IMG/VR virus record: IMGVR_UViG_3300029516_000112
From: a virus
Lineage: Duplodnaviria > Heunggongvirae > Uroviricota > Caudoviricetes
Direction: 5' to 3' (one strand)
Length of the DNA stretch: 7,582 nt
The first letter of the stretch is position 1. Each line of letters begins with the position of its first letter. Both the position numbers and the translations under genes were made by a program. The notes beneath the pieces are model-generated. The model worked only from the letters and a program-made list of their open reading frames with translations, was not told the origin of the DNA and made no database searches. Below, one piece after another: positions 3-4,860 of the stretch.

Positions 3-167
3 AACGCCAGACTGTTAGCCGGGTATCAGTTAGCGGGAGAAATTTTTAAATACTTCACAATTCAGGCGGTTGACTGTTCTCTGGTTTGCGGGGAGTTTGT
101 TAAAAGAAACTGGCATGGTGAATCCCCCTGTGCGGAGGGGCAATCAGCGAGTAGGTATATGGGATAA
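3..167 (+). CDS. Possible 3' end of an upstream CDS (5'-truncated by window edge); candidate late-gene antiterminator Q by position only
   Basis: Frame 3 is open from the window edge to TAA at 165-167 (about 55 codons), ending ...AVDCSLVCGEFVKRNWHGESPCAEGQSASRYMG. It sits immediately upstream of the late/lysis region, where Q lies in lambdoid phages. An open frame this short is weak evidence and I do not recognise the sequence. Confidence 0.25.
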   Translation, partial: NARLLAGYQLAGEIFKYFTIQAVDCSLVCGEFVKRNWHGESPCAEGQSASRYMG

Positions 168-325
168 TCGCGGATTCAGGTGCTGGTACTGAATTCACCG
201 GGAGGCACCCGGCACCATGCACTTCAATAGATTCTCTCCACATTATGGATATTCTTTCAGAATATCCCACGCAGACTTTGTGTAAATGTTAACAAATGTG
301 CGTTTTATTTGATCTGATTCGCTGT

Positions 326-355
326 TTGAGCGTCCAAAACAACGGTATATATAAT
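326..355 (+). promoter_or_regulatory. Candidate sigma70 promoter (TTGAGC, 18-bp spacer, TATAAT) upstream of the first TolA-like lipoprotein gene
   Basis: -35-like TTGAGC at 326-331 and a perfect TATAAT at 350-355; the downstream CDS starts at 385 after GAGG at 377-380. Hexamer match only. Confidence 0.35.
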
Positions 356-384: not shown

Positions 385-813
385 ATGGGTTTTCGTAGCG
401 CATCAATTCTTACGTTGATTATTAGTGGGATTATTATCGGGTGCACTGATGCTGTATCGACAAATTATCATGACCGTACATCATCTTACTCCGATAAAAC
501 AATAGAGACACAGTATGTGAGTTCATCTGAACGTACTTCTGATGTTAGTGAGGATATCCGTCTGTATGCCCATCAAATCAAGAGCGCCATCGAAAAACAG
601 TTCGGGGATGCGAGTAAGTATTCAGGAAAAGAGTGTACACTGAGAATGCATATGGCCCCGAATGGCCTTCTACTGGAGGTTAAAAGAGAAAGTGGAGACC
701 TCGATTTATGTCGTGAAGCGATGAATGCGATAAAGAATGCTGATATACCTGCCCCCCCTTCGCCGGAAGTATATAAAGTATTTCAAAATGGGGTGCTGGA
801 TTTTAAACCCTGA
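385..813 (+). CDS. Lipoprotein with TolA C-terminal (TolAIII)-like domain
   Basis: 142-aa ORF. N-terminus MGFRSASILTLIISGIIIG|C has a signal peptide plus lipobox-like IIGC; residue after Cys is Thr (not Asp), suggesting outer-membrane sorting. A Ser/Thr-rich linker follows. The C-terminal ~85 aa (HQIKSAIEKQFGDASKYSGKECTLRMHMAPNGLLLEVK...IPAPPSPEVYKVFQNGVLDFKP) aligns colinearly with the E. coli TolA C-terminus as I recall it (...AGQIKSAIESKFYDASSYAGKTCTLRIKLAPDGMLL...IPKPPSQAVYEVFKNAPLDFKP), including both Cys and the terminal DFKP. Confidence 0.8.
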   Translation: MGFRSASILTLIISGIIIGCTDAVSTNYHDRTSSYSDKTIETQYVSSSERTSDVSEDIRLYAHQIKSAIEKQFGDASKYSGKECTLRMHMAPNGLLLEVKRESGDLDLCREAMNAIKNADIPAPPSPEVYKVFQNGVLDFKP

Positions 814-963
814 TATTTATTGTTTTGTAATAAACGGTTTCGGCTTAGGTTTGTTCTGACACAACTACGGCACTGAGCTAAATTTAGCGGATAGTCAGCT
901 CTGAGCCAGTGGCGGACGTAACAACTACTATTGCTGAGATTTTAATGGATTGAGGAGCAAGAA

Positions 964-1359
964 GTGGGATTAAAGAAAATCGTTATGTTGACTTTTTGGG
1001 TCGGTTTTGTTGCGGGATGCACACCTTTACACCCTTCAGATTGCCACAAAACTACTGCTACAGGTAGTTGCAGTTCAGGACGCTGGGATGATCAGGATGA
1101 ATGGGGGGCGCAAGCGCGGGGAATCAGAGCTGCAATTAATGCCAAACTTGATGAGCCGCATAACTGGAAAGGGAAAAAATGCAGGTTGCATATGGAATTC
1201 TCTCAGGATGGCACGGCGTTAAAAATATCTACCAGTAACGGTGATAAAGCCTATTGCGAAGCGATAAAGTCCGCAGCTCATAAAGCCAAATTTCCGGCCT
1301 TCAACAATCCGGAAGTCTACAGAGATTTTCAGAAATCTGGCTTTGACATGCGAGGTTAG
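964..1359 (+). CDS. Second, divergent TolAIII-like lipoprotein (paralog of 385..813)
   Basis: 131-aa ORF with GTG start at 964 preceded by GAGGAG (952-957). Signal peptide with lipobox VAGC, Thr after Cys. The C-terminal domain keeps the TolAIII pattern (KKCRLHMEFSQDGTALKI...YCEAIKSAAHKAKFPAFNNPEVYRDFQ) but is more divergent. Start could instead be the downstream ATG at ~985. Confidence 0.75.
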   Translation: MGLKKIVMLTFWVGFVAGCTPLHPSDCHKTTATGSCSSGRWDDQDEWGAQARGIRAAINAKLDEPHNWKGKKCRLHMEFSQDGTALKISTSNGDKAYCEAIKSAAHKAKFPAFNNPEVYRDFQKSGFDMRG

Positions 1360-1484: not shown

Positions 1485-1507
1485 AGCTCGCTACGGCGAG
1501 CTTTTTA
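1485..1507 (+). terminator. Rho-independent terminator upstream of the holin gene (candidate tR'-equivalent)
   Basis: Perfect 7-bp GC-rich stem AGCTCGC (1485-1491) / GCGAGCT (1496-1502) with UACG tetraloop, followed by a T-run (1502-1506). Confidence 0.6.
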
Positions 1508-1610
1508 TATTGCATCGTCTCCAGCATATATATCAATTAAGGCTCTGATTGATGTGTCTGGAAGCCTACACATAATAACTATGCCATCCGTTCCGTGCGG
1601 AGGTGAGGCT

Positions 1611-2142: not shown

Positions 2143-3166
<1,024 letters not shown>

Positions 3167-3417
3167 ATTAATATTAAATCGGATTATTTTTAGCGCTGAA
3201 TGTGAAATTTAAATAAAAAGGACTCTTCCATGAGTCAAAATCCTTGAAATCTTAAGGGTAAGATAAAAGGTCATTAGACAGAATGACACGTTTTATTAAT
3301 AAATAAAGCTATTGTTTCATTCGTGTGTTTTTCTTTACAAAAGTAATCCTTGCTATGGTTGGTTAATCATGCGTTAATGGTGTTCTGGTTTGTTACAAAA
3401 TTATCTGAAGCAGTCAT

Positions 3418-3426
3418 TGTTATAAT
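3418..3426 (+). promoter_or_regulatory. Candidate extended -10 element (TGT-TATAAT) upstream of cspI
   Basis: TGnTATAAT at 3418-3426 in an AT-rich region about 100 nt upstream of the cspI start; no good -35. Sequence match only. Confidence 0.25.
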
Positions 3427-3529
3427 TTTATTATTTGTACCTCTTGAGATTTCCTTGTTGGTTTTTCTCTCTGATATTTTTTTTCGGACCATTCTGCCCA
3501 AGGGCTAACTTCTTCAAAAGGTAATAATG

Positions 3530-3742
3530 ATGTCTAACAAAATGACTGGTTTAGTGAAATGGTTTAACCCTGAAAAAGGTTTTGGTTTCATCACGCCGAA
3601 AGATGGTAGCAAAGATGTGTTTGTGCATTTCTCAGCTATTCAGAGCAACGATTTCAAAACGTTAACTGAGAATCAGGAAGTCGAATTTGGTATTGAGAAC
3701 GGACCTAAAGGCCCTGCAGCTGTTCATGTAGTGACACTTTGA
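3530..3742 (+). CDS. cspI: Cold-shock protein, CspA family (CspI-like)
   Basis: 70 aa [38 protein letters not shown]... with RNP1/RNP2-type cold-shock-domain motifs (KGFGFI, VFVHF). Start taken as the second ATG (3530), SD AAAGGT 7 nt upstream; the ORF track begins one codon earlier at 3527. Confidence 0.9.
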
Positions 3743-3946
3743 GGTAGAAAATATTACAAACCATATTCACTTTAGATGCCCGTGTTGCCATGGTTCTCAG
3801 TATAGAACATCATCTTTTGATGTTTCTGACAGAAATCCTTTCGGGGCAAAATGTATCTTTTGTAAATCAATGATGATTACATTTGATAATATTTCACAAT
3901 ACTTAAATGTTAGCCATCTGTCGTTAGATTTAAGAAAGTGAAAATG

Positions 3947-4743: not shown

Positions 4744-4747
4744 CTAG
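4744..4747. repeat. CTAG target-site duplication, left copy, flanking the miniature IS5-like element
   Basis: CTAG immediately outside the left terminal inverted repeat; an identical CTAG abuts the right end at 4857-4860. Confidence 0.55.
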
Positions 4748-4856
4748 GGAAGGTGCGAATAAGTCACCAAACGCAAAAAAACGCCTATGTAAGTGATTGA
4801 ATTTAATTGACTAAAAGTTTCATTTTCGTTGCGGAGGGTACTTATTCGCACCTTCC
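4748..4856. mobile_element. Miniature non-autonomous element (MITE-like, 109 bp) with IS5-type terminal inverted repeats
   Basis: Perfect 17-bp inverted repeats GGAAGGTGCGAATAAGT (4748-4764) and ACTTATTCGCACCTTCC (4840-4856). The first 16 bp equal the IS5 left terminal repeat as I recall it. Flanked by direct CTAG repeats, consistent with IS5's 4-bp duplication at YTAR targets. The 75-bp interior is AT-rich with no ORF. Confidence 0.6.
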
Positions 4857-4860
4857 CTAG
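4857..4860. repeat. CTAG target-site duplication, right copy
   Basis: Direct repeat of 4744-4747 immediately outside the right terminal inverted repeat. Confidence 0.55.

Follow-up and report, generated by a model that had tools for sequence, protein, structure and literature searches.

Paired Prophage Genes for Predicted Outer Membrane Lipoproteins with TolA's C-Terminal Domain, Possible Co-receptor Decoys

Two Lipoprotein Genes with TolA's C-Terminal Domain

The viral DNA of IMG/VR record IMGVR_UViG_3300029516_000112 (Caudoviricetes), a stretch of 7,582 nucleotides that we call the window, carries two consecutive genes, ORF1 and ORF2, which an earlier note on this DNA had described as a tandem pair of phage-encoded lipoproteins ending in TolA's C-terminal domain (TolAIII). 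By means of profile searches, alignments and structural models we have confirmed that both gene products combine a TolAIII domain with a predicted lipoprotein signal of the outer membrane type. Their features are listed below.

385..813 (+): ORF1, lipoprotein of 142 amino acids (aa) with a TolAIII domain, ATG start
Cys20 codon at 442-444 (+): signal peptide and lipobox IIGC of ORF1, in the sequence MGFRSASILTLIISGIIIG-C20-TD
Residues 21-54: tether of ORF1, rich in Ser and Thr and predicted to be disordered
547-810 (+): TolAIII domain of ORF1, residues 55-142
952..957 (+): Shine-Dalgarno sequence GAGGAG, 6 nt ahead of the GTG of ORF2, read from the sequence
964..1359 (+): ORF2, lipoprotein of 131 aa with a divergent TolAIII domain, GTG start
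Cys19 codon at 1018-1020 (+): lipobox VAGC of ORF2, in the sequence MGLKKIVMLTFWVGFVAG-C19-TP
Tether of ORF2: conserved motif C27-HKTTATGS-C36-SSGRWDDQDEWG
1099-1356 (+): TolAIII domain of ORF2, residues about 46-131

The N-termini of the two proteins are built alike: a short n-region with charged residues leads into a hydrophobic stretch and then a lipobox (pattern [LVI][ASTVI][GAS]C) in which the cysteine is followed by Thr. The lipoprotein signals that the earlier note had proposed can thus be read directly in the sequence, and their cysteine is invariant among the aligned homologues of ORF1 and ORF2 alike. Among protein clusters, 118 of 120 in the ORF2 family and 33 of 46 in the ORF1 family have the lipobox, most (not all) of the other 13 in the latter being truncated or start-shifted. 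Under the E. coli rule, by which lipoproteins without Asp at position +2 are sorted to the outer membrane, the Thr of both proteins predicts the same destination that the note had suggested; Asp is absent from this position throughout the two families, where the residue is A, S, T, G or V, and it is found in just 1 of the 51 clusters of related short lipoproteins. The conserved motif in the tether of ORF2 is modelled by AlphaFold2 as a small hairpin, with moderate confidence.

The assignment of the C-terminal domain, also made in the earlier note, holds for both proteins by sequence profile as well as by predicted structure. Against the Pfam family TolA_C (PF06519, gathering score 25), ORF1 scores 82.6 bits (E 2.3e-23) and ORF2 54.6 bits (E 1.3e-14), while phmmer searches of the PDB retrieve E. 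coli TolAIII with E values of 5e-28 and 5e-9, respectively. The domains were modelled by AlphaFold2 with pLDDT of about 85-95 for ORF1 and about 90-97 for ORF2, and the top matches that Foldseek found for the models were the E. coli TolAIII structures 2x9a, 3qdp and 1tol for ORF1 (TM (target) 0.94, rmsd 0.9 Å) and 3qdp and 2x9a for ORF2 (TM (target) 0.92, rmsd 1.1 Å). The domain of ORF1 is 59-60% identical to residues 334-421 of E. coli TolA, that of ORF2 31-32% identical to TolAIII, and the disulfide pair of TolA, Cys363/Cys388, is retained as Cys84/Cys109 in ORF1 and as C73/C98 in ORF2, these cysteines being invariant in 28-29 homologues of both families. In the Pfam scan ORF1 additionally matches the TonB_2 family (E 5.6e-5).

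The likeness to E. coli TolAIII (PDB 1s62, 3qdp, 1tol and 2x9a) therefore comprises Pfam family, fold and disulfide pair, to which ORF1 adds the C-terminal strand and most of the residues contacting colicin A. It does not extend to the rest of TolA, for the profile matches are restricted to the C-terminus of the latter (positions 261-362 of 362 and 293-386 of 387). TolA is anchored in the inner membrane by a helix, is coupled by its domains I and II to TolQR and the proton motive force and is encoded in the tol-pal operon, whereas ORF1 and ORF2 are prophage-borne, predicted to be lipid-anchored at the outer membrane and devoid of both the transmembrane domain I and the long helical domain II, their N-termini being lipoprotein signal peptides. 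The force generated by TolQR reaches TolAIII only via domains I and II; because ORF1 and ORF2 have neither the membrane anchor nor the long helical domain, they could not be energised by TolQR. Both remain below the cut-off of the equivalog NF007065 (213 bits), with scores of 108 bits for ORF1 and 54 bits for ORF2.

The current annotation looks like an artefact that hides the lipoprotein nature of both proteins. The NCBI pipeline PGAP, and RefSeq with it, labels ORF1 as a partial tolA pseudogene with missing N-terminus (locus L001 8553-8813), since domain III by itself clears the cut-off of TIGR02794 (75.9 vs. 59.45). For ORF2 the same source places the start at ATG 985 (locus L001 8985-9359), 21 nt late, so that the signal peptide loses its charged n-region. 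The likely start is instead GTG 964, to judge from the GAGGAG at 952-957 and from the plasmid homologues, in which the corresponding codon is ATG and the n-region MG[LV]KK is conserved.

Pairwise comparisons by the Nei-Gojobori method indicate that purifying selection acts on both genes. With respect to a 65%-identical homologue, dN/dS is 0.25 for the domain of ORF1 and 0.52 for its signal peptide plus tether, while ORF2 shows values of 0.08-0.11 with respect to its homologues in plasmids, Enterobacter, Serratia, Citrobacter and Klebsiella. Given these ratios and the conserved lipobox, we have rejected the pseudogene reading of PGAP. A tandem duplication was likewise rejected, because ORF1 is nearer to TolA (59% identity) than to ORF2 (29%), a divergence between the two copies that the earlier note had recognised. 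Judging from the sequences, the pair results from two separate acquisitions of cargo ("moron") genes.

Distribution among Prophages, Plasmids and Chromosomes

Among 5,426 complete genomes of E. coli, the ORF1-ORF2 pair (counted at a coverage of at least 80%) is present in 776, about 14%, in a nearly clonal form with 98-99% identity. At 79 of 80 ORF2 loci in the prophage contigs of IMG/VR, ORF1 precedes at a distance of 154 bp and the holin gene follows at about 255 bp. Genes of the ORF1 type, which span 65-99% identity, are found in E. coli and Shigella only, and at all the loci inspected the gene belongs to a lambdoid prophage and occupies the same site after the antiterminator gene Q. A relative with 65% identity occurs alone at the post-Q site of other lambdoid prophages, adjoined by cargo of nanS type or of other kinds. 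The location in a prophage stated by the earlier note is corroborated by identical chromosomal DNA of E. coli. The implied pair specific to phages does not stand, given that the ORF2 family is mainly plasmid-borne or chromosomal and that ORF1-like genes occur alone elsewhere. An obligate two-gene system was rejected for the same reason, each gene being found without the other, and so was the idea of a typical phage gene, mEp460_ev081 being the sole carrier in the collection of phage genomes.

The ORF2 family is mainly a backbone gene of conjugative plasmids of the I complex, and mostly not phage-borne. Genes of this type occur at 525 places on plasmids of the E. coli set, with a DNA identity of about 87%, and about 600 plasmids of PLSDB carry them with 80-90% protein identity; the homology between window and plasmids runs from 30 nt before the start codon of ORF2 to its stop codon. 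In each of the four sampled plasmids with intact nikA-nikB, all having I-complex replicons, the gene lies 67 nt after nikA-nikB. Three of these are IncK2/Z or IncI1/B/O plasmids of MOBP and MPF_I type, and the fourth is a cointegrate of IncFIA/FIC and IncI1/B/O typed as MPF_F. A fifth, untyped plasmid has nikA-nikB followed by the ORF2-type gene beside trbA-trbC genes of IncI1 type, and pO157 has the gene after a truncated nikB. The nikB-linked homologue (L085 5965-6396; L083 7995-8426; L130-L132) shares 88% aa identity with ORF2 and bears the GO label "bacteriocin transport", which is an electronic inference only. The same IncK-type region of nikB and TolA-like gene appears with 89% identity in contigs of metagenome-assembled genomes (MAGs) ascribed to Lachnospiraceae and Treponemataceae (L101 and L102), almost certainly enterobacterial plasmid contigs that were mis-binned.

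Standalone genes of the ORF2 type occur also in the chromosomes of Enterobacter, Citrobacter, Klebsiella, Raoultella, Leclercia, Serratia, Rouxiella, Pantoea, Kluyvera and others, with a cross-genus identity of 65-89%. Their neighbourhoods are unrelated and mostly metabolic; a conserved operon partner was rejected, since almost no flanks are shared across 30 species and no neighbour hinted at a function. In Serratia marcescens, a single genus, the homologue (L090 6001-8736) adjoins genes for GmrSD_N and HEPN domains in a setting resembling a defence island.

A third type of TolAIII lipoprotein, of 144 aa and with lipobox ITAC, is carried by about 310 conjugative plasmids of Klebsiella (IncFIB/FII). 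Its gene (L086 5217-6246) directly follows one for a secreted protein of thioredoxin fold (CxxC), with which it may form a two-gene unit. More generally, an exhaustive phmmer search of 1.8 billion cluster representatives returned 130 clusters, 70 of which contain proteins of 105-170 aa, 51 of these 70 having a lipobox and a few a plain signal peptide, while 14 of the 130 resemble full-length TolA. From this survey, short exported TolAIII appears therefore to be a broad and diverse architecture. A profile search starting from distant short lipoproteins, limited by its word index, recovered the plasmid type of Klebsiella only.

The Prophage Locus and Its Candidate Transcription Signals

The window corresponds to the late region of an E. 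coli prophage that is lambdoid, of the Qin/mEp460 kind. Chromosomal DNA of several E. coli strains matches it at 100% apart from one insertion of 108 bp, and phage mEp460_ev081 is 99.8% identical to it. In the annotated genome the gene order is DUF968, RusA, antiterminator Q, tRNA-Ile, tRNA-Arg, DUF3927, ORF1, ORF2, holin essD and ydfR, continuing with lysozyme rrrQ, spanin rzpQ, cspI, ynfN, gnsB, terminase and the head and tail genes. The pair lies therefore outside any tol-pal operon, flanked by the antiterminator and tRNAs of the prophage on one side and by its lysis genes on the other, at the junction that in Stx phages holds stx. The following additional features were found around the two genes.

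326..355 (+): promoter-like site upstream of ORF1, TTGAGC-18 nt-TATAAT, 10/12 matches to the sigma-70 consensus
856..884 (+): weaker promoter-like site upstream of ORF2, CTGACA-17 nt-TAAATT, 9/12 consensus matches
1485-1502 (+; 1485..1510 with its tail): hairpin resembling an intrinsic terminator, AGCTCGC-TACG-GCGAGCT followed by TTTTTATATT
2820-3116 (+): embedded ORF of an Rz1-type o-spanin inside rzpQ (2669-3166), in the +1 frame, with lipobox LTSC and a proline-rich tail

The hairpin, situated between ORF2 and the holin gene, is the sole terminator-like site in positions 1-1700, where promoter-like sites number 7 compared with 4.5 +/- 1.6 in shuffled sequences, an excess that is suggestive only. 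As consensus matches, these signals would fit a transcription unit of moron type. Being downstream of Q, ORF1 and ORF2 would also be read by the late transcript that Q antiterminates. The embedded Rz1-type ORF renders the neighbouring lysis cassette complete, with holin, endolysin, i-spanin and o-spanin. Directly upstream of the promoter-like site of ORF1, positions 84-274 (+) match the small RNA STnc100 of Rfam (114 bits, gathering score 47).

A Possible Role as Co-receptor Decoys

In functional terms, these results pose a question: What could a TolAIII domain deprived of its energising machinery do at the outer membrane of cells carrying a prophage or a conjugative plasmid? The explanation that we tentatively prefer, while granting it somewhat less than an even chance, is that ORF1 and ORF2 are tethered decoys of the TolAIII co-receptor, directed against group A colicins and pilus-specific filamentous phages. 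A tether of 25-35 residues would hold free TolAIII in the outer periplasm, uncoupled from TolQR, where the translocation domains of group A colicins threading through porins, as well as the N1 domain of the phage protein g3p, would meet it first. These ligands would bind the decoy by beta-strand augmentation, the real, energised TolA would consequently not be engaged, and tolerance would be conferred on the cell carrying the prophage or plasmid.

Binding to TolAIII by beta-strand augmentation is documented for the N-terminus of TolB, the N1 domain of g3p from Ff and IF1, and colicins A and N (PMC7391070; PMC3365938). In alignments with TolA, ORF1 has kept the C-terminal strand used by g3p, colicin N and TolB (NGVLDFKP vs. 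NAPLDFKP in TolA) and the strand bound by colicin A (LLEVKR vs. LLDIKP), together with two of the three lysines in contact with colicin A, K379 and K396 in TolA numbering; the contact residues are those defined for colicin A on TolAIII (PMC3365938). Two g3p-related structures of TolAIII, 2x9a and 1tol, are among its best structural matches. The affinity of TolAIII for the colicin A fragment is about 1.3 uM (PMC3365938), that for TolB 40-200 uM (PMC7391070), and because of this difference a decoy produced in modest amounts could trap invaders while largely sparing Tol-Pal. The two proteins probably differ in target, ORF1 being a close mimic of TolAIII and ORF2 a divergent, strongly conserved one.

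The plasmid distribution is relevant in this regard. I pili are the primary receptor of phage If1 and F pili that of Ff. The g3p of IF1 binds TolAIII (PDB 2x9a), so the link with plasmids encoding such pili, receptors for filamentous phages whose g3p engages TolAIII, provides circumstantial support for exclusion. The occurrence on prophages and conjugative plasmids fits a host-protective cargo, considering the nikB-linked copies, those in PLSDB and those on IncF plasmids of Klebsiella. In transposon-directed insertion sequencing (TraDIS) of the I-complex plasmid pMS7163B, the gene that directly follows nikB has a logFC of +0.39, compared with -5.7 for nikB itself, and conjugation does not depend on it; this gene is equated with the TolA-like gene by position, size and orientation only.

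Several observations weigh against the decoy role. In ORF2 all three lysines contacting colicin A are lost, with E78, S89 and H106 in their place, and the C-terminal strand differs from that of TolA (SGFDMRG); from its sequence, the partner of this protein may be something other than a ligand of TolA. ORF1, for its part, may exert a dominant-negative effect on Tol-Pal when expressed late. The pair is present in 1 of 50,697 sequenced phage genomes, that of mEp460_ev081 alone, and the standalone chromosomal homologues of ORF2 in many genera would also fit a housekeeping role in the envelope. The signs of expression in a lysogen are consensus matches to promoters and a terminator only. Searches of PADLOC-DB 2.0 with ORF1, ORF2 and the Klebsiella plasmid homologue returned no family at E <= 1. 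Overproduced TolAIII reportedly makes cells leaky, which would be a cost to the carrier. Lastly, our literature search found no functional study of these proteins and only passing annotations, namely "TolA protein" in lists of prophage genes and a Cronobacter genome paper speculating that a prophage TolA aids phage entry. No characterised function was found for these proteins, nor was the earlier note aware of one; the family is already annotated by its domain (PHROG 5772, "unknown function"), and the role that we propose for it is a hypothesis.

The decoy role may be extended to a wider generalization, which we regard as possible but hold with less confidence than the role itself. Short TolAIII proteins, mostly tethered and in some cases soluble in the periplasm, could constitute a widespread and hitherto unrecognised class of co-receptor decoys on prophages, conjugative plasmids and chromosomal islands, neutralising Tol-dependent bacteriocins and shielding piliated donors from If1 and Ff; the prophage pair would then represent a set with two specificities.

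Alternative Explanations

The first alternative, which we consider unlikely, is that these proteins modulate Tol-Pal: by binding the N-terminus of TolB or another partner of TolA, tethered TolAIII would damp or re-tune the system, which could lead to increased vesiculation, to changes in the envelope or, upon strong late expression, to a tol-like weakening that aids lysis and virion release. The position downstream of Q and upstream of the lysis cassette, from which late transcription at high level is to be expected, speaks for this explanation, which also agrees with the ORF1 family being found in E. coli and Shigella only and, at the loci inspected, at the post-Q site of lambdoid prophages, with the retention in ORF1 of the strand used by TolB (PMC7391070), and with the leakiness reported for wild-type cells that contain periplasmic TolAIII. 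Yet the adjoining lysis cassette is already complete, including the o-spanin ORF at 2820-3116, and the terminator-like hairpin and promoter-like sites suggest a transcription unit of its own. In addition, the weak affinity of TolB for TolAIII (40-200 uM, PMC7391070) implies that competition would need a high copy number. As to the plasmid and chromosomal homologues of ORF2, lysis is irrelevant to them, and the weakening of the envelope at lysis that the earlier note had envisaged is disfavoured for ORF2 by this distribution together with the full set of holin, endolysin and spanins; for ORF1 it may still apply.

Slightly less probable, in our estimate, is the re-use of a fold of TolA/TonB type to bind a different partner, such as a TonB-box-like strand of an outer membrane receptor or porin, for superinfection exclusion in the manner of Cor and Llp or for an unrelated role in the envelope. 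ORF2 offers most of the arguments for such a change of partner, being only 31% identical to TolAIII, having lost the lysines that contact colicin A, having in its tether an additional Cys-loop motif that is strongly conserved, and being better conserved across genera (65-89%, dN/dS about 0.1) than is necessary for a simple imitation of the TolA of each host. The TonB_2 match of ORF1 points in the same direction, and blocking receptors from the periplasmic side with small outer membrane lipoproteins is a known strategy of prophages (Llp-FhuA preprint). Against it, no candidate partner was found, the nearest structures in Foldseek are all of TolAIII and not of TonB, and ORF1 is too close to TolAIII for an altered specificity to be the simplest assumption.

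That the two genes are captured 3' fragments of tolA without any role, as the PGAP call and the 59% identity of the ORF1 domain to TolA might suggest, is highly improbable, since both frames are intact, each preceded by a ribosome-binding site and encoding a signal peptide with a conserved lipobox, dN/dS is 0.25 for the ORF1 domain and about 0.1 for ORF2, the ORF1 family persists at 65-99% identity and the pseudogene label itself is explained by domain III alone passing the TIGR02794 cut-off.

Comparison with Known Systems

For the decoy role that we prefer, the closest laboratory precedent is the exported TolAIII that Levengood-Freyermuth, Click and Webster are said to have produced in 1993 in the periplasm of wild-type E. 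coli, obtaining colicin tolerance and leakiness. The situation is alike in that free periplasmic TolAIII is present in a cell still holding TolA, and differs in that the construct was soluble and overproduced, while ORF1 and ORF2 are natural, predicted to be lipid-tethered, under selection and located on mobile elements. Among natural systems, Llp of phage T5, Cor of phi80 and N15 and TraT of the F plasmid are similarly small lipoproteins of phages or plasmids, which protect the carrier from phages, colicins or DNA. Scans of Pfam, NCBIfam and PHROG detected no sequence relationship of ORF1 and ORF2 with them, returning only TolA/TonB_2 and PHROG 5772. Llp and Cor, however, inactivate a receptor, whereas ORF1 and ORF2 would imitate a co-receptor and titrate the invader. 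When expressed in the host, g3p of filamentous phages titrates TolA and produces colicin tolerance as well as superinfection immunity. There too the interaction of g3p with TolAIII blocks Tol-dependent entry, but with opposite polarity: a ligand of the invader saturates the TolA of the host, where the decoy would have a copy of TolA saturate the ligand of the invader. With other lambdoid morons of the junction between Q and lysis genes (stx, bor, lom), the pair shares its location after Q and the tRNAs and beside the lysis genes, a site whose content varies among prophages, as well as promoter-like and terminator-like signals of its own, which for ORF1-ORF2 are consensus matches. Those morons belong to other protein families, and ORF1 and ORF2 have no known role in virulence.

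Group A colicins and filamentous phages, Ff, If1 and CTXphi among them, share TolAIII as their handle for entry. Were tethered copies of this handle a routine cargo of mobile elements, this would represent a new and simple principle of immunity at the envelope level, in which a co-receptor is imitated rather than removed or masked. It could explain cases of unexplained tolerance to colicins and phages in natural isolates, and it would constitute a counter-measure of plasmids to plasmid-dependent phages, with a bearing on the use of such phages against resistance plasmids. The natural variants of TolAIII would moreover serve for mapping ligand specificity.

Other Elements of the Window

Two further elements lie in the window away from the lipoprotein genes. 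A 5' untranslated region (5'UTR) of the cspA thermoregulator type is found at 3372-3788 (+; 107 bits), preceding the prophage cold-shock gene cspI (3527-3742). The insertion of 108 bp mentioned above, at 4748-4855, has terminal inverted repeats of IS5 type (GGAAGGTGCGAATAAGT) and a target duplication of CTAG (4744-4859), and strain PI7 lacks it at a locus whose sequence is otherwise 100% identical. Found in 32 of the 5,426 complete genomes of E. coli, one of which contains up to 31 copies, it looks like a rare and recently active miniature element derived from IS5.

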